Origin: Catajapyx aquilonaris
Taxonomy: Eukaryota
Length of the DNA: 64,000 nucleotides
NCBI GenBank assembly: GCA_000934665.2
Contig: JYFJ02000166.1
Span: forward strand, 1 to 64,000
Direction: 5' to 3'
The notes beneath the pieces were generated by a model. It was given only the letters and a program-made list of their open reading frames with translations, was not told the origin of the DNA and ran no database searches. The position numbers and the translations under genes were made by a program. Numbering within the stretch: the first letter of the stretch is position 1; each line of letters starts with the position of its first letter. This document shows, piece after piece, positions 8,400 to 42,919 of the stretch.

Positions 8400-8435
8400 A
8401 GAGAGAGAGAGAGAGAAGGAGAGATAGAGAGAGAG
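8400..8435. repeat. (GA)n microsatellite
   Basis: Interrupted gagagagagagagagaaggagagatagagagagag. Confidence 0.85.
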
Positions 8436-11400: not shown

Positions 11401-12352
11401 CCCCCCCCCCCATTGCCAAAGACTACCTCCCCTAACAATGGCCTTTCCATGCAACAAAATGGCTGCACCATTGTCACCCCCCATCTCTTTCCAACCACCA
11501 ATTTTTTTCCCCCCTCCAAAAAAAATAATAAGACCAACAAACATGTACAGACCTGTCCACGACGCATTTTGGCCCCCCCGCTTCTCCAAGTTACCCAATT
11601 TTCTCCATCACTTACAACACTGCCCATATTACCAACAAGGCGGCGGCCATGTTGCTGTTACTTATCCCCCCCTCCCTTGACACCTTTTGGATTTTCCCCA
11701 TCATCCCCCTGAATGCTTTTGAAAAAAAGGATACAACTTGATCACGTCAGTGTCCATCCGACGCTTTCCTGCACTCGGGGAAGTCATCCTGCGGCCTTTG
11801 GGGGGTCACACAAAACTTCCCCTTCTCTTGGGTCGCGCGATTTCGCCCCTTTTTCGCCCTTTTTGCGGAGTTGTTCAGTGTTTTTTGTGTGTGTTTCTTC
11901 CAATCTGGATGATTTTGATCACTGTATTCCGAGGGGGGGTCAAGCTGCCAGGGTGGAGAGAGAGAGAGCCCCTTCAGAAGGGACTTTATAAAAAAAAAAG
12001 GGGAAAACAACGGAGTTTAAAGTTCTCAGCTCTAGTCTGCTCGATCCGTCTGCCTCGCACTCTCGACACACAATGGCGACCGTCTCCAGGGTGACGTCAT
12101 TCCAGAAGCCCCTCCCATCCATCCCCCCCTTTTCCAGCAAGGTTGGAAATAACGGAAGGAGCAACACCAACAATCGGGGGGCAAACAAAGGGTCTCAGCC
12201 TGAGGGAGGTATATTTACTGTACATTGTAATATATTCTAGGGTGTGTTGGAGGCTGCATAGGGAAGCAATTTGAGATAGAGGACACTCACGGGCGGAAAC
12301 CAGCAACACCAACGGCGCTACAGGCCCATTATAACATCCCATTATTGTAACA

Positions 12353-12649
12353 CACCCCCCGGATATTGTTGTGTATAGGGTACCCTGCCTAACCTGACTG
12401 TGACGTAATAGTTTCGCTTAATCAGTTTCAGTCAACTGACACATGCTGAACGCACCCATGGAACATCCAACATTTCCTCACACAACAATAGGTCCTATTG
12501 TTGTGTGAGGGCATTTCCATGGAAACAGGAAGAGTTGGAGGTTCCATGGGTGCGTTCAGCATATTTCAGTTGACTAAAAATGAGTAAGCGAAACTATTAC
12601 GTCACAGTCCGAGTAGGCAGGGTACCCTATACAACAATATCGGGGGGTG
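12353..12649. mobile_element. Foldback/MITE-like element with ~120-bp inverted arms and an inner perfect hairpin
   Basis: caccccccggatattgttg...tagggtaccctgccta...cccatggaacatccaac is mirrored by gttggaggttccatggg...taggcagggtaccctata caacaatatcggggggtg. Inner 17-bp perfect arms at 12476-12492 and 12494-12510. No clear TSD. Confidence 0.8.
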
Positions 12650-12859
12650 ATATATACCGTAATTATGGGATGTTAATGGGCATGTAGCGCCGTTGGTGTT
12701 GCTGGTTTTCCGGCCATGAGTGTCCTATCTCAAATTTCTTCCCTATGCAGCCCCAACAAACACAATGTGTACACCGGTGTACACACCATAACTGCGTAAA
12801 TACCTCATCAGCTGAGACATTGGGTGCGTTCGGCAGATTGCTGTAGAAATTAGTCAACA

Positions 12860-13510
12860 AAACGATGACGTCAATGGCAAGTTAGTTTGTTCAACAAGAA
12901 TGCCGTGACGTCACTCAACAATGAATAATTTTGTTGTAGAGAGCTCTAGAGAGAGTGACGTCATGGCATTATATGTGTCAAATGGGGGCACACAGTTGGC
13001 AACCTGGCTGCGGATTCACACGAGGTCGTTCGCCGTTTGATCTGTCGTTGGTTCAGTACCGACAGCCAATTTTACTTGACATGTCAACCACCATCAGCAT
13101 GTACAGTGCGGATTTCCGGTCCGTTACGCGTTACCCAGCCCTGTTAGCAACAAGGGGGTTAAAAGAGATAGGATAATAATATGGATCCGAAGGGCGGATT
13201 TAGGGGGATAGGGGTAGGTAGAGTTGTAGAGAGAGGTGGGTTTGCAGCCTTTTTTGTGTGAGAGAGAAGTAGCTAGAGAGAGAGCATGCGTGGCATGAAG
13301 GGGGATCACGTGATTGCAATCAGCTGGTCGGGGTAAACAAGTCAGGCATGCCCCTGTTGCCAAGGGAAAATCGACCGTACCGTCTATATGCACCACATCA
13401 AATCATAATAATGAAGGATTTAAAAATCTGGCACCATTTTTACATAAAAAAAAGTTCTTCATAGAAACTGGAGGGTGTTTTTAAAAGGCGGATGTGAGTG
13501 ACGTCAGAGT
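12860..13510. promoter_or_regulatory. CRE cluster and composite enhancer or alternative promoter
   Basis: TGACGTCA at 12866, 12906, 12956 and 13499. ATCACGTGAT, ATTGCAAT, CAGCTG and GTAAACA are packed into 13305-13339. Confidence 0.55.
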
Positions 13511-14449
13511 CATGCAGGGGATAGTGTTGTCGCTAAGCGAGACCAAAAATCTGGCTTATGAAGTCATGAGGTTAAATGACGCATGATGGAAGGTCGCGTT
13601 TTGTTAGTTGCGCGTGCAATGTGCAAACCACATAATTTTCATCGGTACCTGGTATTCATACAGTATTCGCGGAGTCTTTTATGCAGCACTGTTATCAGTG
13701 TTTCAAGGGAGGTTTCAAGCTGATGAAACCCCCATGCTCAGCGATTTCTCTAGAGATAAGCATCCTTTGTACTTGTACTTGGTTTTTTTGTTGTAAAATC
13801 GGGGTCCGGCTGATGTTACTGCGTCATTGCGATCATTGACATTTGAGTAGGGATGGGGCAAGACGATGGCTGAAGGGGTCGAGGGGGTTGGCTGGCTGGA
13901 TCTGGGGTCGTCATATTTACACGCTGCACGGGCTGAACACTGTCCACTTCTCAACTATTGATCTGGGATACCGTATATATACACACCCCGGATTGGAAAC
14001 AAAGAGCTGGCGTTTCGCCACAGCCTAATCTGGCCTATTTGCAGATCTGACTGACTCTTTTTGCGCACATGAACAAAACAAGTTCGCATTACAACTATTA
14101 GTGATTGTGATAGGGCTGATTTTTTGTACTTTTATTGCGGGTTACATAAAAACGTGATTAGTATGACTTTTCGCCCACATGAAGCAGGGGGCGACCTTCG
14201 GTTTTTATGCGGCTACAAAATTGAGAAATAAGATATGCTGTTCTGCAATTAAACGAGTCTCTTGAGGCATAGCTTATCAGCACGATCATTAATTTTTCCC
14301 TTGGTTTCCACTTTGCAATGGCGTGCATAATCAAAGTGCATTTTGCCATGACAATGTTCGCAGCCCTGATTATAGGAACAATGGCCACTGACACATGACG
14401 CAAAAAATAATTTAATGCCCGTAAATAATTGCCTGTTACAATCACTTAC

Positions 14450-14609
14450 GCCTACAGGGCGAACAGGGGAAAAAATGGGAGTAATATTCCGACGGGAAAA
14501 CTTTATTTGCTGAACCATAATTTTTTTCCGCTTTTTAATTGAACGGATATTTTCCCATTGCAACCTTGCCGTTTATTTTACAGCCACTGGCAACAAAAAG
14601 CACCAAACT
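14450..14609 (-). other. Probable non-coding first exon of a leftward gene divergent from PIGV
   Basis: Minus-strand TCAGTT initiator at 14611-14606 and a perfect GTAAGT donor at 14449-14444. No coding exon of this gene was identified in the window. Confidence 0.45.
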
Positions 14610-15045
14610 GAATCCAATTACAGTAGCCTCTGAGTACAGGAAGCAACATGAGCACCGCATAAAGTGAAATAAACATTATGAATGTTTTTTGAACAAAAAT
14701 ATCCAATTGTGACGTAATAATTTTTAACAAGCACTGGTTAACTGTTTTAATAACAAAGAGCCTGTTTTAAATGCCAGTTTTCAAATCAGCTGTTTTATTC
14801 AATCCGCGCGCCTAGTTGTGACGTCACTAAGCAGCTGGCTACCCTGACTATATCAGCATAATTTCATTTAACTCAATTAATTTTTTTAACATTCTTACAT
14901 AGTTTAATGAGAAAAATTACATGCATAATTTTAGTTAATTAACCATAGCAACCTGTGTGACAGTGTGCCAGATGTTGTTTGGAACGTCAGCTGTTCGAGC
15001 AGTGTTCGAATCAGTTCGAATGTCGTCGAGTTTGTTCTCAGAACA
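14610..15045. promoter_or_regulatory. Probable bidirectional promoter (PIGV and the leftward gene)
   Basis: Outward-facing TCAGTT initiators (15011-15016 on +, 14611-14606 on -), CRE TGACGTCA at 14819-14826 and the variant TGACGTAA near 14710. Confidence 0.5.
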
Positions 15046-16999
15046 ATGGCGGGTGCTTCGAACGTGGACGTCAAAAACGAGATCTCGTCCATGATGGCGA
15101 GCAGCTCCCGTTTGCGACGGAAGGTCCTTCTCTTCGCCAGCTTCACCCGACTTGCTGTACTGACAGCACAGGTTTGCATTAACTATAGTAGCACGGTGCA
15201 ATGTTCCACAAAAGTACTGTACTGAACAAGTGAATAATCCGCAGGCTTTGTTCAACCACACTGTTGAGGACCATGATGCTGATGCATTCAGGTCTCCTCG
15301 TGATCCGGATGAAATTGTGACGCCTGCGGACAAGTTCGTGGAGGGCCTGTTTGGCGGGATGGAACGTTGGGACGCACAGTATTTCATGCATGTGGCCAAG
15401 TATGGATACACCCATGAGAACACGCTGGCCTTTTTCCCCATGTTTCCGCTGCTCACGCATGTGCTGTCGTACATTCCAAGATTGTTTCTGAACGTGCACA
15501 GCTCTGTGCTTCTGTCCGCTGTGATTCTGAACCAGTTGTTGTTCGTTGGGTCGGCCCTGGCGTTGTTTGAGTTGGGCCAGGCTGTGCTGCTGGACGACAG
15601 AATTGCGTACAGGTTTGTGTTACTTGAGTTTATGCGGAACATATTCAACTGTTGCATGCATTTGCATTACAGGTCAGCCATACTGTACTGCATGAACCCA
15701 GCGTCTGTGTTCTTCTCAGCGCCATACTCCGAGAGCCTGTATGCATTCCTCACTTTCACCGGTATGCTGCTGAGTCATCGAGGATCCATGTGGAGCAGCG
15801 TTGTGTTTGGACTGTCCAGTGGCACCAGGTCCAACGGACTGATTAATGCTGGATACATCGCCTACCATGGGTTTATCTCCTCCGCGAACAGGACAATTTC
15901 AGACGTGTTGGCTGTCATGCTCCAGTTTGTCAACTGCTGGACTCCGTTCTTCCTCTACCAGCAGTATGCCTACCGACAGTTCTGCCGCATGCGGCCTGAC
16001 CCGGAGAAGCTCTTCCTTGCCAAATTCTGCACTGACAATGATTTTATGATGCGTGGAACTGTGCCATTTCCTGAGTGGTGCAATAAGCTGATACCGATTT
16101 CATACGGGCACATACAGAGCCACTACTGGGATGTTGGACTGCTCAGGTGTGATATTTTTGTGACAGTCTTTTGCTCTTTCCTAATAACTAACAATAAACT
16201 GGCAACTTTCTGATGCTCCTAGATCACACATCTTAGCAATAAAGTTGCCGCTTACTCCTATTGAGACTTTTGTTCCCTTCGCATAATTTTTGATGGTGAC
16301 TTACTGTATACAGTTCTGTAACGCACTGGACTAATTACAAACCATTTCACGTGTAACAGGTATTACGAATGGAAGCAGCTGCCTAATTTTGCTCTGGCCG
16401 CACCCATTTTCATCATCCTGGCTCCCTGCTTGGCATCTTTCATAAGGCGGAACCAGCGTCTATGCCTGACATTAGGTCTTAAGAGAGAGAAGTTCCCTAC
16501 CATTGACAGCAGGCTGCTGCCGTACATAATACATACCCTATGGATGCTGCTGGTCTGTTTGACCTACGTGCACATTCAGGTAGGATTTCCTTTAACATTT
16601 ATTCAATGTTCTGCTGCATCCTCACCTTCATATTTTGTGTGGACCTTTTTTTAAACAGGTAACCACAAGAATGCTGTGCTCAGCAACCCCTCTGCTGTAC
16701 TGGTTTGCAGCACAGATGGAAATCCCTAGTGTTCAAGAAGACTCGGATGATAAAGACAAGAAATATGCACTGGAAGTAAGACAACAACTTTTTCTCGGCA
16801 TATCTATAAAAAAACCAGACATTACAACACAACTGATTACTTTCAGGTGGATTCAGAGGAAAATCTGCAGAGTTCCTGGAAGGTGTTTGTGTTCACCGAG
16901 CGACCCTCATCACGAGCTGGAAGACTGATTCGTTTGTACTTTGTTTCGTACTTTTTCATTGGAACTGCAATGTTCTCTAATTTCTATCCATGGACTTGA
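15046..16999 (+). CDS. PIGV: GPI mannosyltransferase 2 (PIG-V), 6 coding exons, ~485 aa
   Basis: Exons 15046-15171, 15245-15612, 15673-16146, 16360-16579, 16659-16775, 16847-16999. All introns are GT-AG and the joined 1458 nt is open. PIG-V family motifs: RWDAQYF, ENTLAFFPMFP, NPASVFFSAPYSESLY, RSNG, IQSHYWDVGLLRYYEWKQLPNF, HIQVTTR, C-terminal NFYPWT*. Confidence 0.96.
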
Positions 17000-17832
17000 A
17001 CTTGTAAAGAAAAGTTATGTATAGGAATACAGTTTTATTATCTGGTTCAAAAGTACATAATGAACACTGTTTTAGCCATCACAGGTATACAGTTCCTTTT
17101 AAAAAAGCACTAATATAATACTCCTAAAACATGTAAATGGCAGAACTGTATGCCTTCATGATTACATAAATGCCCTCTTTAAATAGTGTCATTGAACAGT
17201 TCTTTGATGCAAAATCGCTATACCTGACTTCCTGAAAGACGGAACAGTCACAGTTTGTTTGAGGAAAAAACCCTCATAACAAACAACACACATGTTGATA
17301 GTTAGTTAAGACATTTGTGGCCATGATCACCGTTTTGAAGCAATTTCCATATAAAAATCAATCACAAAAATAGTAAAACAAAAAAGGAAATTACCACACT
17401 GTTCCATCCCAAACATGAAAAGTACAGAACATGATCACTTTATGCGAACCGAACTTGTGCGCTAGTCACGTCCAGCTGACACGTTTAAAATGGAATGGAG
17501 TGTGACAATGGCCAGACCGAAATATGTATACAAAAGCCAGTCGACCATGTTATCATCTAGTCAATAACAAGATTCATTGCAATTTCTGAGTGATAAGTTG
17601 AGCATGGCACTTGCTGTGTTTGCTTAGTCACTTACAAGGCATCCACAGGAAGAACTTTGAACAACCACACAATGTTTGCATCACTTTTCACATTCAGAAA
17701 TTGCAGAGCGCTTGTCACATCCAAGCTGCATCACCTGATCCACTGTGGTGAACTGAACCGTCACGACTGTTGCCTAAAGTGGCTGCAACCCTTGCTGGGA
17801 TGCTTTGTCCAGTTCATCTCTCGAGCCACAAT

Positions 17833-20800
17833 CTATGCGGCGGGCTTGGATCGAACCCCGAACACTTTACTGTTCCGCAACAAGTCCATCCTCTCGTATG
17901 CATACTGCAGTCTCGAGGCCAGGTCTTGACTGCACCCGTTTTCCTTGATGAGACTGAATCTGTAGGTTCGCACATTCTTGGCCCCATCTATGTAAGTTAC
18001 TGCACCCATCAGAGGGCAGAGGATGATCTTGGTGTGATCCCTAAAGAAGTTGACCTGCATGGTCCCATTGGTGAGGTGCATGACAACTGCACGGCTGGTA
18101 CGGAACCAGGTGCGCAGGAAGGGCATACGGGAGATCTCATCTCCATCGCGAGGTTGTATGGAGCCTCCAGCCTTCAGGAGGTGCTCAGTCATGTACCTCT
18201 GGAAGTAGTTGAGCAGGCGTACTTTCTTGTCCAGGGACGAAGGGTAGTGGTCCAGTGCGTGGAAGTTCTCAGAGTTGTCACGCTCAATGTACTGCAAGTC
18301 TCTGTGAAAAAAGAGTAAGGACAATCTCTTTGAATACAAGGATAACTCAAAGAAGACGCTAGTACATGTTAAGTAACTGTACAAGTAACTGATGCTCGAA
18401 ATTTGTTTCTGTCACAACACTACCTCGCAAATTTTGAAAAGAAAAAAACCTCGTCTCAAACTTAAAAGACTATTGAGCGTAACACAACAATGCTAAAACC
18501 ACTCACTTTCCGTTGCTGAGGAGCAGAAGCTTGGTGAGATCATTGAAGATGACCCCGATGGAGTCATCACACAGCTGGTAGCCAAATCCGTACTTGTCCG
18601 AGTAGTCGACCCACTTGCTCACCCACACAACCGGTACAGCAGCAGGATCCTCAGCCTCATCTAGAAATTCAGTTGTATTAGGAACATGCCCAACAAATAT
18701 GAAATGGTGCTACTCTCCACACATTCCTCGTCATCTCAATATTACTGGGCCAGTGGTGAGCCTACTACTTGCAAATGGGAACCAACACTGAACTCGGTTT
18801 GTCACAGAAACAAGTCCACCAGGCTTGATGGGTCCCTTACCCGAGATATATGAGAATAGGCCACAAGTCACAAACAAGTGGACAGCATCCGACAGACAAT
18901 ATTGTAAAAGCTTTGCACCAAAACTGTATAAGCGGAAGCTACTGAATTATCATTGGGGTAATACAGTACAGAATTGGTGCAGCGCTATCATTCAAGGCAT
19001 ACGACACTTTTTGCCAACTGTTCTGTACCTTCCATGATGATTTCTTTCTCTGATGGCTTGGCAGCAAGCAATGATGACAGCTGCTGAGCCAGATCTCCCA
19101 GATAGTAGTCAGTGGCCTCCTTGGTCACTCCTGGGTTGCTGCTAGGCTTGATTGGGGACCCCCTGTAGGGCTGGGGCGGCCCTGGACCCACGGCTGGTTC
19201 TGGAGCATTCACCGCGACTTTCTTCATTATGACATTCCCATCCGATTCAGCTGCAAATGAGTACCAAGTTTATAACAACCGACGGGGGAAATGGAAATGA
19301 ACAGCCAGCAACAATGCTTTGGCTGCACAGCTAGTAGCAACTCACTCATGCAGGAAATGCCAAAAGCAGCAGCTATAATATCATTCAATGTTGTTCAATG
19401 CTCAGTGCCAATGTTGCAACGGTGTGTCAAGGCATAACTTTTGGCAATTATTAGCTTGATAGAAATTAATCCGTGTTTGTGTATTTGAAATGCGAAAGAC
19501 AGTTAACTACAAAATATTTACTGCTTCAAAGTACCAATGCCATTCCCCATTTTGTATTCACTGCACACTGCAGATATCCATACCCATGGCGTTGATCTCG
19601 AGCAGTGGCTTCCTGGGAGCAACGTTGACCACCCGGGAGTCAAACCTCGGTGCTATAGTAAGGCAGGAGACAGGCAGCCTCGGAGGGCAGTAGCCCAGAC
19701 TGAGGAATTCGTCTGCAAGGGCCTCTGTCACAGTTGGCCGCTTGCTGGGATCAGGCTGGAGCAGGCGGTTGATGAAGGAGCGGGCCAGTCCCCCGACGCG
19801 AGATGGGATGTGGTACTCATTCTTCTTGATGCGCATGTACGTCTCCTTCAGGGTCTGGGTCTCAAAGGGAGGCTTCCCCACCAGAAGGGTGTACAAGATG
19901 CAGCCCACTGACCACATGTCCACCTCAAAGCTGTGCCCCTTCTTGCCGAGGACCTCGGGGGCAATGTAGTTGGGAGTGCCACACAGGGTGCTGTTCACAT
20001 ATAAAAGTGATGCTCAAAATAATATCCAATGATATTCAAAAATTTAATACAAGCCACCTAACAGCAAGATTATATCCTACATATGAACTAGTAAGCATAA
20101 ATCATCCTAAACCGGCAAGAATTTCGGTAGTTGTCGGTCGTTTACCACAAAACATGACTGTGCATTTGCTACTACTCAAGCAGTAATAGCATCTGTTGCT
20201 TCCCTGTTTGATCAGTGCGCGCAAATATTACTTTATTGTGCCATTAAATAAACATGATCTGCTATCAGTAAATGACCTTCCTTGCAAGTCAACTTGGATA
20301 TGCTTAACCCTGAGCCCAGCATTATCTGATAACTGCAACTCACGGACAACTCAGAAAACGTAGCAATGATTACAAGTTACAGCCACATACACTCTTCTTT
20401 CGCGTTTAAAATGACTTCACTTTTGCTATCACTGTCATGATGCCTTGATTATAAATGGGCCCTTGCAGACGGGCCAAGCTTGGCCGCGGCCCTGGCCAAT
20501 TTCCAGGAAGTTGGCCAACCTTGTAAGCCGTGGCTTGCCAGGTGTGAACCGTGGCGGCCTCGACCAGCCGCGGCCAGCCACGGCTAAGCTTGGCCCGTCT
20601 GCAAGGGCCCAATGACAATGGTGACAACATTATTACCTTAGCTCTTAGCAGAATCATAGTTCAAGAGACTAATGGCTAAAAAATTATGGATATGAATGTT
20701 GCAAATCATGATCATGCTCAATGGCATCACAAAATCTGAGACACTTTTAAAAAATTTAAATGGTAGGGACTAACCGCTTCCTTTCGCCATCATAATCTAT

Positions 20801-22730
20801 CCGGGTTGCCAGACCGAAGTCTCCCAGCTTGAGCTCAAGTTCGTCATTCAGGAACAGATTGCCAAGCTTCAGATCACGATGGATGATCTTGTTATCATGC
20901 AGGAACTTCACCGCCATCAGAAGCTGCTTCAGGAAGTACCGAGTCTCTGGCTCAGTGAATGCCTTGCGTCTCTTGTGCATCTCCATGAGAGACTGCAATG
21001 TAAGGAAGGGTCAAGATCAGGTCAGTCCATTAGACCGGAGCAAACTCTGCTACTCCCTACCCGCCGCCTGCACAGTTCCAGCACAATGTAGACGTTATCT
21101 TCGTCCTCAAAGAACCCGTTGAATCCAACAATGTGAATATTGTCTATCTCACGGTGAATGGATATCTCCTGGGCCATCTTGTCCTTCTGGTGTTGCTTAA
21201 CCAGCAACTGCTTTGAGACGATCTTGCCGGCATAAATCTTCTCCGTGCCCACTTCTGTCAGCTCATAGCACTTGGCAAACCCACCCTGCAAAATTAAAAT
21301 GCCAGCTGAGTTCAACAATTGATGTTAACATGTATTAAGATGTTGACAGCATTACCACATTAAAACAATCAATATATTCATGTACTCTTAATTTTTAAAA
21401 GTCCAACATCACCATTGTTGTCAATCCAAAGTGACAGAAAAAATAGTACCAAAGATGATGGCATTTTTACATTGTAAAAATTGGGAGGCAAATTCTGTCC
21501 AACATAATCACAGGCTGATTTTGGCCCAAAATATTTTTTCCCCCTGCAATGTACATCATGCAACAAAAGCAATAAAAATTTTGATACCAGGCTTTTTTGC
21601 AAGCCAGTGTTATTCATGATTGCTCTGTTGATGACTTGATTGTAGAGGAAAACAGGGGAGCACAAAAAATCCCAGCCAACACTCTTTCCACAGCAGAAAA
21701 TCCTGTACTACATAAGCTCTCTCTCAAAAAAATCTAGACTATTACGCATGGAAGCGTAACTCAAATATCATATTAATATTTTTTGAGCATTACAGGCCTA
21801 CTACTGAACCCGGGGATCGAACCCAGATCTTCAGGTGTGAAAAACTTTGGACCACCATGCTTTAGGTGTGCACTGTTTGACTCAAACAGCCACTGTGTTA
21901 TTAATATTTTAAATTCATGATTACTCAAGCTTCCTATTTAAAACCCTCCATAAAAAATGCAGCATACACTGCACATATAAAAGCATGTTATGACATATTT
22001 TAACAAATTATTAAGCATTTTTATGTGGAGTGTAGAAGAGTCCAGTGCACTTTTTGTAGCATCTAGCTACAGCTGGTAATATGCCAGAAATTTTATAAGA
22101 AACCAGTAAATTTCCAACAGGCCGACATTTAAAAAATATATATAGTTGTCCAATCACATTTCCGTAACGGGCCGTTATTGACCAAGCATGTTAACCTCAC
22201 AAATGCAGCCATTTATTCTGGATAAACATTCGACATAATCCATTTTTAACCCACTACTTCAACAGTCATGAATCAATACCTCGGTGATATGTAAGCCCAT
22301 TTTCAGATTATTTCCTATTGTACCAGTTCATAAGAAATGGTTCATGACTACCACCGGATGAGTCCAGTCTGAATAATGTATGATGACTCAATGCATTACA
22401 AGGTTAAATACCCAATCACAATAATGACAAATATTTCAACAAATTTAAAATATCGCTTAACATGTAACATTTATGCCCAATCCACGTCCCCCAAATTTTT
22501 TTTTTTAACGATCCGAAACGACCGTTATGAAAATCCAGATTCATGTAAATTTAAATGCCTTCCTTCCCAAGATGGCAGTGGGGAAGTGGTGGGTTAATAA
22601 TATTTAAAAAATGGTTTAAACTGACCTTTCCGAGGAACCTTCCCCTCCTGTACCTCTTCCGACTGGTAGGATCCACCAAATATTCGGGTATCTCCTTCGC
22701 CTTCAGCTCATCCTTGCTCTTCGTTGCCAT
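17833..22730 (-). CDS. polo: Serine/threonine kinase polo / PLK1, 7 coding exons, ~599 aa
   Basis: Exons in transcription order: 22730-22626, 21285-21061, 20992-20775, 19990-19584, 19250-19029, 18660-18507, 18301-17833. All introns are GT-AG and the joined 1800 nt is open. Kinase motifs [35 protein letters not shown]; linker D-box RKPLLEIN; polo boxes [18 protein letters not shown] and DHTK. Confidence 0.98.
20457..20610. mobile_element. PIF/Harbinger (Tourist-like) MITE in polo intron 3
   Basis: 30-bp TIR gggcccttgcagacgggccaagctt(g/a)gccg with one mismatch; 3-bp TSD AAT on both sides (20454-20456, 20611-20613). Confidence 0.85.
21805..21860 (-). mobile_element. Degenerate tRNA-derived SINE fragment in polo intron 1
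   Basis: Minus strand reads ctgggttcgatccccggg (B-box/T-arm); no complete cloverleaf. Confidence 0.4.
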
Positions 22731-23702: not shown

Positions 23703-26700
23703 ATGGCGTCTGTTCCATTGGCGGAGACTCGTCGTCGGAGGCAGAAGTGGACTCTGAACCCGAGGGGAGCGGTGTGGCTCACAGGTATACACGCCGGGTT
23801 GGAACAGGGAGACGAGAGGGAAGGACCTGCGGGGGCAAAGAGAGTCGAAAGGAATGGTTTCGGGGAGACCGAATGGAAGTGTGGTGGGCAGGGGTGCAGG
23901 GGAGGGAGATGGAACAGAAATGGAAGAAGGGGGGGTTAATTATTGATAGTTATGTAAACTGTGAGGGGAAGGAGTTATGGATATTGAGGTAACAATTTCC
24001 ACCTTGAATGTGCTTATCGCCATTTCGATTTTATGTTATGCAGTAGAACTCCGATCATCTAACCTCGGATTTATCCAACTCCTCTGCCTATCCGACCGTC
24101 CCACTCCGGAAATATAACTATTTTTCTCATCAAATACTGTAATGTACTACCTATTTGTTTCGCATTGCTTGAGTGTGAAGTACAGCTACAGTGTCTGTAT
24201 GTATTCATGTCATTATTTTCATTATCATCCTATCCATTGTATCCTTTGCGTGGCCTGACCAGTCACCAGAGGATTCATTATACTGGTCGTACGAGATGGC
24301 CAGGTGGATTGTACAGTGTTGGACATTAATCGAGGCATGCTGCTCTCGACATTTTCTGAAGGATAGTGCAATCCGGGCGAGCAAGATTCCTTCTTCTGCC
24401 GCTTCGGAAAATGTCGCTAGCAGCATACCTCGATTAATGTCCAACACTATACAATCCACCTGGCCATCTCGTACGACCGCTATAATTAATCCTCTGGTGA
24501 CTGGGAATATGCTGTGAGTGACAAAAGTTACAGTAGAGTGTGTAAAAGATAAATGCTTCACTATTTCTTACGAAACCATAATATTGTATGTTCATGTTTT
24601 CATGCGTTTTTTTGTTGTGGTTCATTCAAGTTTTCTTAGCTCCTCGTATTAGACAACCTTTTTTGTGTTCCGACCATGCTCCGGTCCTATGGGTAACTCA
24701 TAAATAGAGTCCTGATTTTTAGGCACGAAAAAACCCTGAAATTGGCACGAAAGAACCTCGAATGGGCACAAAAAGTTAACTTTTTTGGACATGTGGAGGA
24801 TAATGTTACAGAAAATAAAAGAGCCAGAATAATTTTATATGCCTAAGGTATATAAATATAAGGTCACAAACCAGAGCAAAAATCGAATAACACCGATAAA
24901 CTGACAGAAAATCACAAAACTTGGGCAAAAGACACAAAGTGCAAACAAGCATCACTTGCTCTGGACTCGTACGCTTATAGCCAATTTCCACTTGAACCAT
25001 ACTTGCACAATATGTTGTCAAATATTTAGCATACATGTCACGGAAACATGATTCGTATTCCTTCTGAACGATGTTGGTCCTTTCAGGGGCACAAAATAAT
25101 ACTCCTCAAAAAACCAACAATGAAATATGCCTCAGAGGGAATAGGCCTGGAATAGGCCTGGAATAGGCCAAAAAAGTTCAGAAATTACTGCAAAAAGTTC
25201 AAAAACTATCCCAAAAAAGGCCAAATAGGCATGAAAAGTCGCAAAAAGGCAGAATGGGCAAAATAGTTCCCAAAACCACGAAATATGCCATTTTAGGCAC
25301 TATAAAACCTACCTTTTCCACATCCTGCACTTATGAAACGGATAGATCTCTTCACAGAACCATCCCAACTGTTAAGGAACTAAATAGGCATTTGCCTAAA
25401 AATCCGGACTCTACTGATAAACGACGTTCTACTGTATTAGTTATATTATCGAGATGGTGTTGCATACCCTACCTTTGGAACAATGCCATGAAGAAATGAA
25501 TGACTGAGAGTTATATTCTGTTATGTTAGTTACATTGTTGTTATATTAAGTTACGTTATGTTTCCAGTTGAAAAGTAGCCTTACAGCCTTAGCTGACTAC
25601 CAACTATTGGCCTCTACTTGTTTCTATCGGAATGTAGGAAAATGAGTTATGAGCGTAAAATCTACCGTTACAATGAGTCCATTTTGATCGGAAAGGGTAT
25701 AAATTTTGTGTGATTTTTAATACAAACTTGTGGTTTTTAGTGTCAAAAGAATGATAGAGCTGCAAATATTTTCATGAATCGTTTGTTTCAGATACTAATG
25801 GCGTGGGTCAGCGAATGCTGCAGAACATGGGGTGGAAGCCTGGGCAGGGGTTGGGTTCGAAAAATCAGGGGATGACAGAGTCTCTACGTGTTACTACAAA
25901 AAATGACAACAAGGGTGAGGGAGCACCAAAGACAAGGATCTGATATCTGATGATTGCAAAATGTGGTGGAGTATACTAAAGGGAAGTTTTCTTGTAGGGG
26001 TAGGCTACTCTGGAAATAATAACGATGGCTGGCACCAGCAAGAATTCAACTCACTGTTGCGACAACTCAATAAAGACAACGGAGGGCCAGAAAAGCCAGG
26101 GGACAAACCTGAGAGGTTGGAGGAAAGGGCCAGGAAGTCTCGGGCTCGTGTTAAGTGAGTGTTACAAATGTAGAAGTGTCTTACAATGTATGAATATAGA
26201 AGGCATGTTTTTATAAATTAACCTTACTGGTTATAAATGTAAGTCATGTACAGCATATATCAGTATCTCTCAATTATTTGGACCATTAAAAGGAGTTCAA
26301 TGAAAGCGTTTATGGTGATTAATCTGTTTAATCATACATGCTGCAAGGTCATTGCCGGTCAAAGCATTTGCATTCATTTTATTATTCTATTGCAAGAGAA
26401 GCACACTCGATGCAGTAATCCCTGTGGTTACCTACCAATCATTTCAGTACTGTCGAAGTAAAAACAGTGTGTAGAGAGGAGAAAATTGCCTTGATGCAAA
26501 ATACTATTACAAATGATTGGATTGTAATTTTTACAATTTTTGTACTGCAGGGGGTGAGAGGTTCAATTGAGGCTTTGATGAATATTTCCCAAGTCATTTC
26601 AGTCTCTCAGCCTTTGCACCATAATTACCATTGCCACCAATATATTTAAAACCCATGCATGAGGTATAGTTAGTCTCGCTAAGTATTATGAAAAATATAC

Positions 26701-29700
26701 GTGAAGTGAGAATTCTCACCAGCAAGTTTGATCTCACCTAATTTGTCCACTCACAAGTCGGTGCTTTAATAAATTTCTGCGAATTGTCCAGCAAGTGACA
26801 GCAGAGTTTGCTCTATGTATTGACCAATACAAAACACCATTGCTGCAGCGCATGGCATCTCTGCACTATTATAAGGCAGAGAAGGCCCTGACCAGCGGCA
26901 GAAATTTTATCCATTGCATCCTGGTTTTGACCAGACAAATTGAGTGGGATTGAACAAATTGGTAAGAATTCTCATTACGATGCAGCATAGTGTTTGGCTG
27001 GGTGGCATGAGATGGGGAATGATGGGTTGATTACTGGCTAATAATACCCTAATACAGGAAGTACCAGTCAGGTACCAGTATTACGCCGCTCCATTTTACA
27101 CTGTTTCACGTTAACCCTGGTTTTAAAATTACACGTTTAAAAATTTTATCGGGAATATTTGAAAAATTTGAAGATAATAACAATCTAAACATAAACACAT
27201 TTCTGCAACACTTCTGAGTCCAAACACACTCGGAAGCGAACGGGTGGTCCGCCCCTGGCGGACCACGATGAAAGGGACTTAGAGTGATGATATAGGCCCT
27301 ATGTGGGGCCCGGGGTTTAAGGACCTACATGGTCTGGAATAACCCCGTTAATATCTGACGAAGTCCAAACACACAGCCGTAGAGGCTGTTCTTTTGTTTT
27401 TCCTGGTGCCTTGTGGCAGGTTCTATCGATATACAGGGTGATCCAACTCTATGGCACCAACAGTTATTGGAAAAATTGCACAAGCTGCTTGTTTATAAGC
27501 AGGTCGTTGCTAAGAGGTGCTATTCCTGATACTCCAGAAAGTATCTCTTAGCAAGGACCTGCATAAACAAGCAGCTTGCGCGATTTCTCCAATAACTGTT
27601 GGTGCCATAGAGTTGGATCACCCTGTATATAGTATCGTATTGTTAGTCTTGGCACTCCCCAAAGTACTCCAACCGTTGTTAAATACCCAACGTGTACTGC
27701 AATTCTTGCCAAAATAAGGAAAGGAGACCTCAGAACCCCGATGGTCCTCAACCTGGAACCTCCCATTAATCAATCTGTCAAATATTCAGCATAAAACAGC
27801 ATTAGTACTGCCTATGGAAATATTGTGGAAATGTTGGACCCTCTCTCATGTATCAACGGTTCAAAAAGAATTGTCCCTCGCGTCGAGCGGGCAGCCACGC
27901 GTCAGGATGAAAGCAACCAGTTAACTGGTTCCTTTCATCCTGACGCGTGGCTGCCCGCTCGACGTGAGGGACAATTCTTTTTGGACTGATGATACTTATA
28001 TTATAATTTTATCTCGTTTTACTCTGATTCACTTTCCGCCATGTTTTGCTGGAACCTGTAATAGGGCATTAGCACCTTGAGAGTGTTAGTAATTTTCCAG
28101 TTCTAACATGCAAAGCCCAATTTTGATGAATGTTCCTATTCCCAGCTATCGTAAGATGCTACAAGCAAAGGACCTGAGTTCCCGCAGTGAGAAGGACATG
28201 GCCGCCATCTTTGGCCACAGAGTGCTACAGGCAGAGGACAGCGCTGAAGGAGGGAGTGAGTCCAGCATCACTGGGAAAGAGGAAACATCTCATGGAGTCA
28301 CCACTGTCCACCGAGGATCTGTTCATGACTACTTTGCTGCCAAGATGGCTGCCAGAAAGAGGCGAGCATCTGGAGGAGGAACTACCAAGAGGAAGAGGGC
28401 AAAGCAGGAAGAGGAAGAAGATGCTAGTGATTCAGAGAGTGATGTTTCAGTCGGAAAGGATGAGAAGAAGGTAAGTTAGGTTCTTGAGGGATTTTAGCTG
28501 TCAAAGTAAAGAAACTACCGTATTACCTCACTTAAAGCGGCATGCTGGTGTAATCGAGGTATGCCAGTATAAGGCGAGGTTTTCTTAAGCACAGCATTAT
28601 CACAATCTCTCTGAAAAAATTATTGTTAATCAAATGAATGTATTACACCATGTTCTACGGTGGTCGGTAAATGGCGGACAAGCTTCAGGTAGCGAGATTC
28701 CTTGTGAAAAATCAGTACATGGAAGTGAAGGTCATATTGCTCTACGAGGCCTGGTTAGGGCTCACGAGGCCTCCAAAGTTTGGGCCAAATCATGACGTCA
28801 CATCCGCCCGCGAAATTCAAACACTACCGTATCGCTACCGTACGCGGTGTGTTGCTAGGCGCTGCCATGTTGACATCTACCACATGTTCACCAAACAATG
28901 GAACCGTATAAACTCGCCGGGACGTTGCCAGGAACTCGGCGACGACGGCATGGCAATGCCTGGCAACGTCCCGGCGAGTTCATACAGTTCCATTGTTTGG
29001 TGAACATGTGGTAGATGTCAACATGGCAACGCCTAGCAACACGCCACGTACGGTAGCGATACGGTAGTGTTTGAATTTCGCGGGCGGATGTGACGTCATG
29101 ATTTGGCCCAAACTTTGGAGGCCTCGTGAGCCCTAACCAGGCCTCGTAGAGAAATATGACCTTCACTTCCATATACTGATTTTTCACAAGGAATCTCGCT
29201 ACCTGAAGCATGTCCGCCATTTACCGACCACCCTGTATACAACCTAGAACACTTCTATTGCCTGACACATCCCCTGAGCAACAGTTTCAATTAAGAGTGC
29301 AATGCTGCAAGAAGGTAAGTATACATACCAGGATATTTCATACATTGGGTTTGGATTTTATTATCTGAGTAACGAAGCTTTTCAGATATACAGGGTGTAA
29401 ATGAATTCAGCCGACAAACTTGTAGGGGTAATAGAGGGGACCAAGACAAACATATTTGACATAGGAAACCGTGTCCGGAAACGCCATCTAGAGGGGGTTC
29501 ATAGATGAGGAACGGGTGCGTTCAGACGTGTCAGGCTGGCGGCGTTAGCGAGCGGACCGTTTAGTTGCTAGGTGGCAGGCGGATTGTACACACCTTCGCA
29601 TTTCGCCATAACCTGGCAACAACAGAGTTGTTGTTTATTATCTGCGCGCTACCTAGCATGCTGACTTTACTTGCTAGGTGGCTCTGTTGTTGCCAGGTTA

Positions 29701-32700
29701 TGGTGAATTGCAAAGTTGTGTACAATCCGCCCGCCACCTAGCAACTAAACGTCCGCTCGCTAACGCCGCCAGCCTGACGCGTCTGAGCGCACCCGTTCCT
29801 TGTCTATGAACCCCCTCTAGATGGCGTTTCCGGACACAGTTTCCTATGTCAAATATGTTTGTCTTGGTCCCCTCTATTACCCCTACAAGTTTGTCGGCCG
29901 AATTCATTTACACCCTGTATTGATACCACTATGCCTTTTGCATCAGATGAACTTGCATATTCTCACAGCCCTGTAGGCCTGTGCTCACACAATTTTCACC
30001 ATAACATTATGTTAGTACAGTACCAGATGCATTTCAAAAAATTTGACAAGGATCAAAATTATGGAAATCTACCCCTGTTATTGCGGCATACCGGCCACCC
30101 CCGGGTTATACCGGCATGCTGGTGGACCTCATTTTATACCAGCATGCAGCTTTCAGCAGGGCCAGACTTTGGCCTAGGCAAACTAGGCAGCTGCCTAGGG
30201 CTCCAGCTACGGAGAGGGCTCCTGGCGCCGAAGGCACTTTTTAAAATTATTTTGAAAACGCCGAACTAATTATATTATTAGTGTGAGTACAATCTCAGCT
30301 AAATTATAAAATAATTAGCTGTTACATTTTGTCACCATTTCTTGAAGTTGAAGAGTTACTGAAAATGCAAATCGTAAACTTGTAATTAAATGTCAGTTAA
30401 TTTTATAATGTGTGTAAAAAGGTACTTTTCGACAGTGCCAGCACGTGGGGGGGGGGGGGGGGGGGGGNGGGGGGGGAATGGCCGCCCCGCCTCTTGGGTT
30501 TGTACGATGTGTACCTTTTGTAGAGGTACACTGTTATGAAATTAGTATGTATTTTTGGCGTCAATTAGCAAGAACCTTAAAAATTAAATTTCGAGTTCTA
30601 GGTGGGGAGGCACTCATGGAGGTGACCCTGAGTTAGAGACGCAGCCCCCCTCTCTGGGCCCCAAAATTAGTAGGGGGCCCTGCTGAGGCTGTGTTGTATC
30701 ATGGATTTACTCTAATGCAACAGCCGAATCAGCCTCCCATACTATTCATTTGAAAAATAATTGAAAAGTGTTTGACCGCAAATATCTCACAAATAAAAAG
30801 TCCAAAATATTCATGCAAAGTGTCATTGGAGACCTTGTTTAAATATGTGTATCACATAAGAATGGCCACATTTGCTCTGATTCACAAATTAGAAAAGTTT
30901 TGTCATGGCCCTGCGAGATGAAGCCTATTTGAGAATTTCTGGGGAAGTAAATGTTCAATCTAAAAATTTCATTTTAAACCTTTGATGGTGCTGACATTTT
31001 CAGGTCGGCCTCTGGCTTTATGATGGTGTTATTTACGATTGTGTAATTGTAATTAAGACAAGAAAACCCAGGTATCATGTCTATTTGCAGTGGATTTTTT
31101 TTTTTTTTTTTTGTCAATTTCAATGTCAGAGTTGGGGCATTACTTCAGGCACGATAATAAAGTTATTTCTGGAAAATTTCTGGGCTGACCCAACCAAATT
31201 AGGCCATGTAGTCCATCAATTGACGCATTTTTGCAATATACTAATACTGTAGGCTACATAGTCGCATTGTCTTCACTCTTGCCTCCCCTTCCATCTTCTT
31301 ATCCTTTTCCTACCTCCTTTTTCCATGGCAAATACACAAGATAACTGGGTTTTGGTTCTGTCTTAATTACAATTAAATGATCACAAATAAGGCAATTGGA
31401 GAACCGAAGTCTGCAGCGAAAACGTTGGACCCATTGATAGTTAAAAAGGCAATTGTTTTGCTTGAAATCATTTGTAACAATGAGTCATAGAGCAAGGCCA
31501 GCTAAAATTTATAGCCTACTTTTCTTTCTCCATTCTCCGAGAAAAATTCGAGCTAGTAATGTAGTCTACTGGTATGTATAGGAATATAGGTGGATAAAAA
31601 TAGGATCTCGGCGGGCACCCGAGTTTGCCGTCCACCATCGCCTCTCCCACTTGAAGGTCAAAGTATGTTCAATAAAAATTAAGTTTTTAAAATCTATTAT
31701 AAAAAGGGGGGCCTGACAGGGCCCGACTTGGTTAACCGCCTGGGGGCCCCGGGGGCCTCAAGTTCGGCGCTGGCTTTAAGTGAGGTAATACGGTACATCA
31801 GTAAAAATCTAATGAGGTGGAAAATGTGTGTAACGCTTCCTGTGCAAAAGTCTGTTACTGTATATTCTATCAGTGGATTTTTTAAAGATGCAGCTGTTCT
31901 ATATACAGTGTATGTATACTCTATGTACATAAGTTAATTACCTATCAACCAGTTTTATGTCCTGTCTTAAGTGCATTGCCAGTAGGAAACTTGCCCACCA
32001 TTAGTACAGAATATGTGCTTTTAAGTACATTTATTGCAACAGCAGCTACAACTCTGGCCTTCCTTGTCTGGATTCTTTCCCTTACAATAAGTTATCTTCC
32101 TGTGCATTACTTTATTACACTGGCCCATTGGGAAACTCTGTGTGCCACAGAATAGTCTTTTAAAGAAAGGTGAACCCGTCAGGTCTCGATTTGTCAATTT
32201 GGACCAGATTTTGTCAAAGCTTCTATATTACTTTGTTGCCTGTAATTCAATAATGTGCATGCAACAACGAGGCAGGAAGATGGGCTAGGTATGCAGCAAA
32301 TGTTAAAGCTTTTTTAACTGGTTTATAGATGCCAAAGAGACACATTGTAACTTAACAACGCGGTCGGAGTTGGGCGGGCGGGGGGGGGNGGGGGGGGGGG
32401 GGGGGGGGGGGGGGGCGGCTCCCGACGCGGCGGTTGGCAACGTTGCGCCGCAAACAATCGGATGCCTTGATACTGCTGCCAGCCAAATTCGAATGCCTTC
32501 AGGGTTGCTTGATGAAGTGTCATTCTTTGGGTTAACGGACTGCAGCAACCATCATGGCTTTCATATTTCCCACCTCCTTCATTAATACTGTGGTCCCAGC
32601 ACTCGTCAGATCGGTTCGCGTGGCAGGGGTAACAAGGAGCCCTTTGTTGTGCTCTCCCGGAAACCGATTGTTTGCGACCGGTAGCCAACATGTTTGGAGC

Positions 32701-36890: not shown

Positions 36891-37333
36891 CAGGGTGAAG
36901 GGAAACTCGCTGACAATCGCCAGGTAGACTGATAGTACTTGTAAAACTAATAATATAGTGATGTGCAATTAGTTTTCGGCTCTGTTACATTGTTAATGCA
37001 TACAGCGCCTTTTAAATGTGGAGGGCCGGATGCTAAAATATGAGGTGGGGAAAAAAGTGCACGGGTGTCGTACCCGGATTCTTACTCTGACGGGATGTGA
37101 TCACCTATTGCCCATGGACGATGTGTCAGCGGACCAAGGCCAGATTATTCGGAGGCCCTAGCTGGCTTTTGCTTCTTTGAAACTGGAGGAACAAATGTGA
37201 TGTCACGAAACTTTAAAAGGGTCGCACACATTAACTACGCAGAGTCGCTCAAAACTAATTGCACATCCCTATATTAGTTTTACGAGTACTATCAGTCTAC
37301 TTAGCGATTGTCCGCGAGTTTCTCTTCATCCTG
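36891..37333. mobile_element. Tc1/mariner-type MITE upstream of the LC3 coding region
   Basis: TA|cagggtgaagggaaactcgc-tgacaatcgc...gtagactgatagtact...gatgtgcaattagtttt is mirrored by aaaactaattgcacatc...agtactatcagtctac...gcgattgtccgcgagtttctcttcatcctg|TA; ~125-bp imperfect arms. Confidence 0.85.
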
Positions 37334-40924: not shown

Positions 40925-41380
40925 GCACCAATCATACGGTAGGATCGGATCATTCAGCCAATAGGAGCGACCGAACTAGAACGTGTAATCTCGGCCAATC
41001 TGTGCGCGAGTTTACGACTCAGGAATGTGCTCTGCGCCTACCTGACCACATACGCTGGTTTCTATTGGTCCAAACCCCAGCTGTATTCTAACACCAGGAA
41101 GCCGTGTCCAATCAGATCCCAGGTTACAAGGTGGCTGGAGACATCATCGGCCCTGTACTGAGCACACTATTTTTGGGCCCCCCACCACCCCCCCTCCTAA
41201 ATTTTGAACCCTATTCACCCCCCTCCTTGCACCCCCCCCCACCCCTATCCCCCCCCCCCCCCCCNATGGCAGCTGCAAGCGCGCCCGAAATGTGCTTGCC
41301 GTCCCGCACCACCACCACGGGCGACCTGAGAGGCAGTGCGCGCCGGCTATGCGGTGCACGGATGGACCAGCGCTGACCAT
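40925..41380 (+). promoter_or_regulatory. CCAAT-box cluster followed by a CpG-rich segment; probable promoter and first exon
   Basis: CCAAT at 40928, 40958, 40995 and 41108, ATTGG at 41064; CpG-rich 41266-41376. Strand is inferred. Confidence 0.55.
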
Positions 41381-42919
41381 TTGATTTATTATTACACAGT
41401 TCGGGGGTGTTGTTTTTTTTTGGAACAAGCGCGGGGGGGGGAGGGGGGGGTGTGTACACACACTTTCAAAAAAAAAAATTAAGAAAAAAAAAAATAAGGG
41501 GGGGAAAAAACAAACCGGGGATTCGAACAGTGTGTAGTGGAGTTAATCACATGGGCTTGATGACCGGGTCCAAAATGGACGGTTGTGGCGGTAGTGTGTG
41601 GCGGATCGGTGTCCCCTCATGATACCAAAGGGAAGATGCCAAGGAAGGGTAAACCCCAAGGTAAGGGTTTTGTTTGTTATAATAGTGTGAGGGGGGGGCA
41701 AGGGTAAACAAAGAGTAGGGGTGGGGGGCGTCACTCCCACCCCCTGCCCTCCCCACTGCAAACCTCATGTCTGTGTTTATGATGACAAAAGTACACATGT
41801 ATACATGTCCAGTGGGCATGTGCTTGGGTGGGTTCAAGCATGGCTTCTCCTTACCAAGCAATTGTTTGCTAAGAATGGGTTAAAACACATTAATCTGATT
41901 ATTCTGACATAATGTAGCGACATCTGACCACTAGCCAGTCGGTGTTAAGTTTCTTTAGTGTTGCTGTGGGATGACATTGTTGCCGTTAGGACCGTGAATG
42001 CCGGATTGTGTCAATGTATGCAAAGGTTTTTATGGCTTGCATTTCATTTTTGGTTGTTTGACAGCAATGAAATGTGGACAGTCAAGACTTGACTGACATG
42101 GCACATGTTTCACGGTGGGGTAGTTTTTCAATGCTGCTGATTTGTTGTCAAAAATTAATAGTGAGTAAAAACCTTATCTGAGTGCGAAACCTACTTGTGC
42201 ATGGATTGTGGCCTATAATATTGTCAATGATAAAACAACACCATCGCGACATTGCCCTATAAGGGGTAGTCAGCGATGAAGGGAGACTCAAGTTAACTAA
42301 TGTCAATAATGGAGTGGATTATTTTAACAATGTGTGTGCAGACATGAGGTTAATTTTGGAAGTAAAAGCGAAGTTTTAAAATTGCACCTGGTTGAATACA
42401 TTAACGGATGCTATTCGTTGTTTACTAATAATTTCCAACAATAACATCAGGGATTTTTAATGTGTCCAAGTTGGTGCAACTGGCCTAATTTTATAGTGAT
42501 AGTATTTTGATAATTGTTCATGTAACTAACAATCTGTTGTCGCCACTCTTGTTCTGGCTGTTCCAATTGCGAGACATGGCAGCATTGCCCAATAAAGTTG
42601 GCAACATATGAACTGCATTGTAAATGCCTTTTAGAAGCAAGAGTTTGACAAACCCATGTGATATTCAGGTAGGAAGAAGCGACACTTATGTATTTTTGTC
42701 AGTACGTAAAGTAAACAAAACGTTGATAAGAACCTGATTGTTGCGTAAACAGCAGCCATGCACGAAGCAAAGTTAACTGTGATACTCCCATGTGTGGTCA
42801 TCCGTTTTGGCCGTAGTAAATATTTAGTACATTTGTTTAAGCTTAGCTGTTATACAGCAGCAGCTACATTGTAAGGTTGCAGAATATAATCATATCAAGT
42901 CTAATACGTTGCTTAATAG

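Follow-up and report, generated by a model that had tools for sequence, protein, structure and literature searches.

Two hAT-like elements at an equal distance from the tips of other repeats in Catajapyx aquilonaris: probably ordinary nested insertions with a coincidental offset

A 64,000-nucleotide (nt) stretch of Catajapyx aquilonaris (GenBank assembly GCA_000934665.2, contig JYFJ02000166.1, positions 1 to 64,000, hereafter the window) is eukaryotic DNA with intron-split genes, and it contains two hAT-like elements, here called A and B, each lying within another repeat (host 1 and host 2, respectively) and separated by 13 nt from a TA dinucleotide that was taken as the host's end. The question raised by this locus is whether hAT elements are directed to the ends of other transposons, as a preliminary description of the sequence had suggested, or whether the equal offset arose by chance. 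The strings and coordinates given in that description all proved correct on direct reading. Our analysis indicates that A and B are probably ordinary nested hAT insertions and that the 13-nt offset which they have in common is probably coincidental.

The hAT character of the two elements was examined by a blind scan of the whole window for segments of 80-5000 base pairs (bp) whose ends read YARNG, whose inverted repeat matches at 10/13 or better and whose 8-bp duplication matches at 7/8 or better, YARNG being the consensus start of the short inverted ends of hAT elements. The scan returned three candidates, namely A, B and one artefact within a palindrome at 28774-29117, while the same scan of 20 shuffled sequences gave no match in 18 and one match in each of the other 2, indicating that A and B are genuine. 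No other hAT-like element could be recognised in the window. Both carry an 8-bp duplication and short inverted ends that begin with YARNG; the two copies of the duplication agree at 7/8 in each case, and the ends start with TAGAG in A and with CAGGG and CAGCG in B. Their earlier description as hAT-like insertions with 8-bp duplications was thus upheld by an unguided search.

Element A (24705..25413) is a 709-bp non-autonomous hAT-like element of a high-copy family, as judged from its ends, duplication and depth. Its inverted ends, TAGAGTCC[T/G]GATTTTTAGGCA, are 21 nt long and 20/21 complementary, and they are bordered by the duplicated octamers ctcataaa on the left (24697..24704) and ctgataaa on the right (25414..25421). 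The subterminal repeats AGGCA and GGCAC each occur five times in A, against shuffle means of 0.71 and 0.35. Copy number was judged from summed contig depth, relative to 26-40 for single-copy contigs in four runs of one sample, and from a contig comparison that listed 15 of 293 joints and 24 of 5,368 loose ends, to which all statements on joints and loose ends below refer. The summed depth of A was 3,700-18,800, and 84-91 distinct contigs per run differ in the letter at 25313, so that the A family amounts to many dozens to hundreds of genomic copies. Neither joints across A, as from a host 1 copy without A or an empty allele, nor loose ends at its tips were among those listed, a result that is uninformative.

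Domains were sought in the 150 longest stop-to-stop open reading frames of the window (at least 83 amino acids), out of 255 frames of at least 70 amino acids. A transposase domain was found in none of the 150, the frames overlapping B included, and the two frames among them that overlap A had no Pfam domain. Within the window, blastn detected no further copies of A, B or the host segments, its matches being confined to the inverted repeats of these sequences and to poly-G noise. Exact-pattern scans of the genome_contigs and viral_contigs collections gave no match to the A end or to the end of host 2. The A end had a single match of 21 nt in metagenome_contigs (L001, 301-321), which was dismissed as a relative of A and ascribed to chance, as its surroundings were GC-rich and bacterial-looking and showed no other likeness to A.

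Element B (30157..31772) is a 1616-bp non-autonomous hAT-like element of a low-copy family on the same grounds. Its ends, CAGGGCCAGACTT and CAGCGCCGAACTT, match at 10/13, and its duplication reads gctttcag on the left (30149..30156) and gctttaag on the right (31773..31780). Other contigs over B were few, with one at 30342-30360 and 2-8 at 30681-30766, and B is a very small family, for which the contigs point to fewer than ~10 copies. A joint from 30432 to 31649, seen in two contigs per run with TTT between the two sides, shows that a short, internally deleted derivative of B exists elsewhere in the genome. The interior of B holds a poly-G run with an N and a TA-flanked inverted repeat at 31044-31375, which is probably a further MITE (miniature inverted-repeat transposable element) nested in B. 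That poly-G run (30447-30476) and another at 32371-32415 contain a single N each, and the homopolymer length in the assembly is therefore uncertain; comparable G runs lie near 41233-41264, 41430-41450 and 59446-59467.

The repeat that received B is well defined. With B and one copy of its duplication removed, the arms of host 2 (28518-31793, or 28516..31795 with its TA flanks) match at 35/38 when TA is included (z of 21 versus shuffles), and an inverted-repeat search recovered from it an inverted pair of 23 nt with 100% complementarity. The flanking ta is present on both sides (28516-28517 and 31794-31795). Host 2 is a non-autonomous member of a high-copy family, its own parts having a summed depth of ~9,000-21,000; 66-72 loose contig ends per run, with AT-rich unrelated flanks, fall at 28516, and alignments of paralogs stop at the 3' tip, with sides of 24-25 nt. 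This true 3' tip (31781..31795) is made up of the 13 nt tgaggtaatacgg (31781-31793) and ta (31794-31795). The octamer doubled by B is present once in the intact 5' arm of host 2, as CTTAAAGC, which represents the single ancestral copy, and the right copy of the duplication is identical to it. Thus positions 14-21, where B was inserted, belong to a genuine terminal repeat, that of a TA-flanked family with many copies, and for host 2 the reading of a TA-flanked element with B 13 bases from its tip stands. Joints that skip B run from 30147 to 31774 (4 contigs per run) and from 30119 to 31773 (2 per run), so that at least six paralogous host 2 ends per run are empty at the site, versus one, the present locus, that is occupied by B.

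Only ~540 nt of host 2 are its own sequence, the remainder being three nested elements. Besides B, these are a palindromic TA-flanked MITE with 274-nt arms of 97% complementarity (28658..29235), whose end is of the CAGGGTG type and whose left side is damaged, and a second palindromic TA-flanked MITE with the end CAGGGTGTAAATGA (29391..29917), recovered as the TA-flanked pair 29389-29919. In other copies, a joint connects 28661 to 29237 across the former MITE.

Host 1 is a candidate element with uncertain boundaries (24041..25434). It was delimited by the 9-nt inverted repeat CAGTAGAAC (24041-24049 and 25426-25434), and its presumed 3' tip (25422..25436) consists of the 13 nt cgacgttctactg (25422-25434) and ta (25435-25436). 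The region is repeated in the genome, with a summed depth of 480-2600. The only inverted repeat between the supposed ends was CAGTAGAAC, extending at most to AT[G/A]CAGTAGAAC (9-12 nt). In a narrow search of the two presumed ends, it reached a z of 4.3 and was equalled in none of 200 shuffles; in a wide search (660 x 577 nt), its score was 23, with a shuffle mean of 20.6 and a maximum of 28. A longer inverted repeat proposed by permissive local alignment was discarded, its score of 33 being within the range of the shuffles (mean 20.9, maximum 37). Host 1 is preceded by tg on its left side and followed by ta on its right. No sequence link to host 2, or to a MITE at 24314-24449 described below, was found (z at most 0.7). 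The earlier picture of two TA-flanked hosts with terminal repeats was confirmed for host 2, with TA on both sides and 35/38 matching arms, and not for host 1, with TG on its left and a repeat of 9-12 nt. The label pogo/Tigger is unsupported for either host, as the scanned frames contained no transposase and the TA flanks are its sole support; the hosts are TA-flanked and Tc1/mariner-superfamily-like, with no finer label. What sets pogo apart from Tc1 and mariner is a pogo-type DDE transposase with CENP-B-like DNA-binding domains, and both hosts are non-coding, the 150 frames containing no such domain.

Two further observations concern the interior of host 1. A direct, not inverted, repeat TCCGACC[G/A]T...CTCCGG lies near its ends (24090-24112 and 24672-24690), a feature at odds with a simple terminal-inverted-repeat element. 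Nested in host 1, besides A, is a palindromic composite MITE (24259..24505) with 103-nt arms, 92% complementary, at whose exact centre sits an inner TA-flanked element (~24314-24449, detected as the TA-flanked pair 24312-24451) with the end CAGTGTTGGACATT. Loose ends at 24452 numbered 68-73 per run, and the depth of the composite MITE was 30,000-54,000, exceeded only in the bins of 29320-29861. The 14-mer TAATCGAGGTATGC is present both in the terminal repeat of this inner MITE (24423-24436) and in the 5' arm of host 2 (28551-28564), with a z of 4.8-6.4, and is not found in the 3' arm of host 2; it may be a transposase-binding motif common to the two TA-flanked families.

These properties of host 1 bear directly on the offset of A. 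One account of the equal offset, which we regard as unlikely and yet as the best surviving of the alternatives, is that the tip of host 1 was mis-set, so that the true end of the repeat lies at another place, or the repeat belongs to a PIF/Harbinger-like element that duplicates TTA and has the ends T[G/A]CAGTAGAAC; A would then stand 15 nt, or a different number of nt, away from the tip. Reading the left end as tta followed by T[G/A]CAGTAGAAC and the right end as gta followed by tta gives a fit at least as good, with A at an offset of 15: tta followed by tgcagtagaac on the 5' side and gttctactgta followed by tta on the 3' side form a perfect 3-bp duplication with a 10/11 inverted repeat, versus the TG/TA mismatch of the original boundaries. 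The lack of significance of the inverted repeat in the wide search argues in the same direction, as does the alignment, which extends outward to CCAT[T/C]TCGAT on both sides. Other copies of the region join 24146, 24147, 24156 or 24168 to 24541 or 24529, so that the structure of the family differs from what had been assumed. Against this account stands the presumed tip itself, which matches that of host 2 at 8/13, a level attained by 52 of the 7703 TA-adjacent 13-mers in the window (0.7%), and the repeat in the narrow search surpassed all 200 shuffles. CAGT directly after TA is, moreover, the usual tip of Tc1/mariner-type elements, which also counts against a mis-set tip. The proposal that both insertions occupy positions 14-21 from a host tip accordingly stands for B in host 2 and is uncertain for A, whose host has an unsure tip and gives 15 under the TTA reading.

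The reading that we favour is that of ordinary nested insertions. A and B would be non-autonomous members of the hAT superfamily with no relation to each other, and each would have been inserted a single time by cut-and-paste, with staggered 8-bp cuts in the target repaired into 8-bp duplications; both would presumably have been mobilised in trans by autonomous partners. We infer this mechanism from the 8-bp duplications and the end motifs. The insertions and their duplications, the ends of host 2 and the repeat status of all parts were directly observed. B demonstrably landed in the terminal inverted repeat of the MITE-like host 2, and A would have landed in the older, degraded host 1; both hosts are among the older repeats with which the introns of a G-patch (PINX1-like) gene are filled. 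The choice of target would be governed by a loose hAT preference alone, the survivors also being shaped by retention in neutral, repeat-filled intron DNA, and the equal offset would be a coincidence or in part a product of the way in which the tip of host 1 was chosen. Insertions into other repeats are to be expected here, because the summed depth was at least 10 times the single-copy level in 21-22 of 30 bins (depending on the run) of an 8.1-kb stretch and because three elements are nested in host 2 alone. The probabilities that we attach to the alternatives overlap in part with that of coincidence, a mis-set host 1 tip being a special case of it.

Several points weigh against coincidence. 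The TA lies 13 nt past the right duplication in both of the hAT-like elements that the blind scan recovered. Provided that neither tip is spurious, the probability that two random nested insertions have the same offset from the nearer end is ~2/L, which, computed from the coordinates, ranges from 0.0012 (L = 1652) to 0.0037 (L ~540) and has still to be multiplied by the chance that both insertions lie in TA-flanked elements. The likeness of the two tips at 8/13, found for 0.7% of the 13-mers, makes the tip of host 1 look like a real Tc1/mariner-type end. The additional factor for TA-flanked hosts is not small at this locus, because 21-22 of the 30 bins are of high depth and ~8 TA-flanked elements were counted in the 64 kb; the latter are the well-preserved elements to which 44 TA-flanked inverted pairs collapse, as compared with 0-2 pairs in shuffles. 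Taken together, the coincidence is rare for any one window, is expected occasionally in a large scan and rests on one unsure tip.

The sequences at the cut sites were compared in view of these points. The two duplicated octamers are alike at 2-3/8 and the next 20 nt inward at 6/20, so the cut sites lack a recognition sequence in common; the outer 13 nt alone reach 8/13, and conserved sequence at the insertion sites was not found. Both the dissimilarity of the two duplications and the pattern common to the two host ends, as noted in the preliminary description, were thereby confirmed, the latter with the frequency of 52/7703 given above. In the available text of a study of hobo, a hAT element analysed at 1,198 insertion sites, merely a loose target motif, NTNNNNAN / GTNCGNAC, is described (PMC3276498). 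The duplication of A fits NTNNNNAN with T2 and A7 in both copies, and that of B fits it by half, at one of the two positions in either orientation.

Some real insertion preference at this locus seems unlikely to us. In its weaker form, which we judge improbable, the DNA of terminal repeats would suit hAT transpososomes, and positions 14-21 would be enriched several-fold and would still receive a minority of insertions; such a preference may stem from a bent or protein-bound stretch, or from a position, conserved among related tips, that fits the loose hAT motif well. This would agree with the single offset of two out of two hAT-like elements, with the 8/13 likeness of the tips, by which the hosts may have a common end architecture, and with the fit of A's duplication to NTNNNNAN in both copies. 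Target motifs of cut-and-paste elements are also described, in the part of the source available, as reaching past the duplication and as reflecting DNA shape (PMC3276498). The sample is n = 2, the duplicated octamers are dissimilar and B fits the motif on one side, all of which speak against a preference; at least six of the host 2 ends listed have no insertion there, and the tip of host 1 is uncertain.

The steering of hAT-type transposases to TA-flanked, Tc1/pogo-like elements, at a fixed 13 bp from their tips, is about as improbable; the cue may be a terminal repeat that is bent or occupied by transposase, or insertion may take place into a host element that has been excised. Dedicated end-targeting, in which the transposases of A and B would be steered to a fixed distance from pogo/Tc1-like tips through recognition of the tip sequence, through tethering to a transposase bound there or through integration into the DNA end of an excised host, appears very improbable. 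The offset that is equal to the base in two out of two elements argues for it, and precedents for set insertion places are described, in the parts of the sources available, for IS5075/IS4321 (PMC8269217), for Tx1-Mar, SINEU and Tx1 (PMC4494074) and for Dada (PMC3706591). It would need one rule to hold across two distinct hAT families and two distinct hosts, with no conserved sequence at the cut sites and no transposase domain among the 150 frames. The contigs across the junctions had depths of 12-34 for B and 26-43 for A (30-43 on the left and 26-40 on the right), and at this single-copy depth neither the A nor the B junction is repeated in the genome; no branching of these contigs was seen at the host termini, though it would be expected if many copies had the same host context. 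The depth of host 1 beside A (bin 24442-24712) was 1,500-2,600 versus 3,700-18,800 for A, which places most A copies outside the host 1 family. In full-text literature searches (supplements aside), nothing was found on hAT elements that target the ends of transposons, and strict targeting would normally be expected to surface during the building of family consensus sequences, where the flanks would align. This indirect evidence weakly disfavours targeting, and a preference for the tips of many different TA-flanked families may fit these observations too.

An assembly artefact at a junction, for which the poly-G runs with a single N (30447-30476 in B and 32371-32415) and the shallower depth of the B junction contigs relative to their neighbours (12-34 vs 26-40) could be cited, is negligible in our estimation, since each of the four junctions lies inside contigs showing 0 differences. 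These contigs span 24412-24880 (24412-24736 in run X4), 25391-27268, 30094-30393 and 31652-32000, those beginning at 24412, 25391 and 31652 being found in all runs and the contig 30094-30393 being listed for X1-X3. Misassembly at the junctions, raised at the outset as a possible objection, is thus unlikely. The four runs come from one sample, possibly the assembly's own source, and for this reason the junction contigs do not constitute independent support.

As for the gene setting, the G-patch (PINX1-like) gene whose introns house the elements under study extends over 23703-28476 on the forward strand. Its probable first coding exon (23703..23783, +), with the translation MASVPLAETRRRRQKWTLNPRGAVWLT, had no Pfam match and may resemble the N-termini of PINX1 proteins. 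The G-patch itself is encoded by an exon at 25794..25919 (+; PF01585, E-value of 1.2e-16), by which host 1 and A are placed in an intron, and a further open coding stretch of the gene region lies at ~28093-28476. Upstream are a PIG-V mannosyltransferase gene (15164-16925, +) and a polo-like kinase gene with kinase and POLO-box exons (17836-21324, reverse strand), both recognised by domains in the scanned frames. More palindromic MITE-like elements, mostly TA-flanked, lie at 27429-27630, 27850-27995, 12259-12745 and 36925-37299; several of these four have CAGGGTG-type ends, as do both MITEs nested in host 2. The genome appears to be very rich in palindromic MITE-like elements.

With the MITEs of the hAT superfamily and hobo, A and B have in common the 8-bp duplications, the short YARNG ends and the lack of coding capacity, and A has subterminal repeats as well as a duplication that fits the loose target of the NTNNNNAN type (PMC3276498); B differs in its poor inverted repeat (10/13) and in a duplication that fits the target motif on one side. 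As in other nested DNA transposons and MITEs, younger elements lie in older ones, host 2 carrying three and host 1 two, and nested insertions are given for 36-41% of the coding Mutator-like elements (MULEs) of maize and rice in the accessible part of one account (PMC3903597). The present locus differs from ordinary nesting in that two unrelated insertions have one common offset from the host tip.

Set insertion places are known for a few mobile elements, described here from the available parts of the sources. IS5075/IS4321 have their insertion sites in terminal repeats of the Tn21 transposon family, which resembles our case in the set place inside another transposon's terminal repeat and is an established instance of what had been suggested for A and B (PMC8269217). 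They differ in being prokaryotic, in using an IS110/IS1111-type recombinase and in recognising a specific sequence common to all of their targets, whereas the two targets at our locus have little sequence in common and n = 2. Mariner-N4_AMi is the preferred target of Tx1-Mar and SINEU, and Tx1 is found within Tx1D (PMC4494074), while Dada DNA transposons use strict, fixed sites in small nuclear RNA and transfer RNA genes (PMC3706591). Both groups provide examples of safe-harbour insertion into multicopy sequences, DNA transposons included (PMC3706591, PMC4494074). Dada differs in its 6-7 bp duplications and RNA-gene targets (PMC3706591), and the Tx1 group consists of non-long-terminal-repeat retrotransposons (PMC4494074); in the Dada and Tx1 cases as described there, many copies occupy one site of one target family, while the present case consists of one insertion of A and one of B.

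Taken by itself, the locus is an ordinary example of transposons inserted in layers within introns. Were the equal offset to prove a rule, eukaryotic DNA transposons would be seen to choose targets in a new way, with transposon ends serving as safe harbours, and the bacterial relationship between IS5075 and Tn21 would have its first counterpart among eukaryotic cut-and-paste elements. One transposon family would then disable another, hAT MITEs would ride in other DNA transposons, and a possible way to aim hAT vectors would be provided. Because the A family is present in many copies, this locus offers a cheap and well-defined test case for such a rule.

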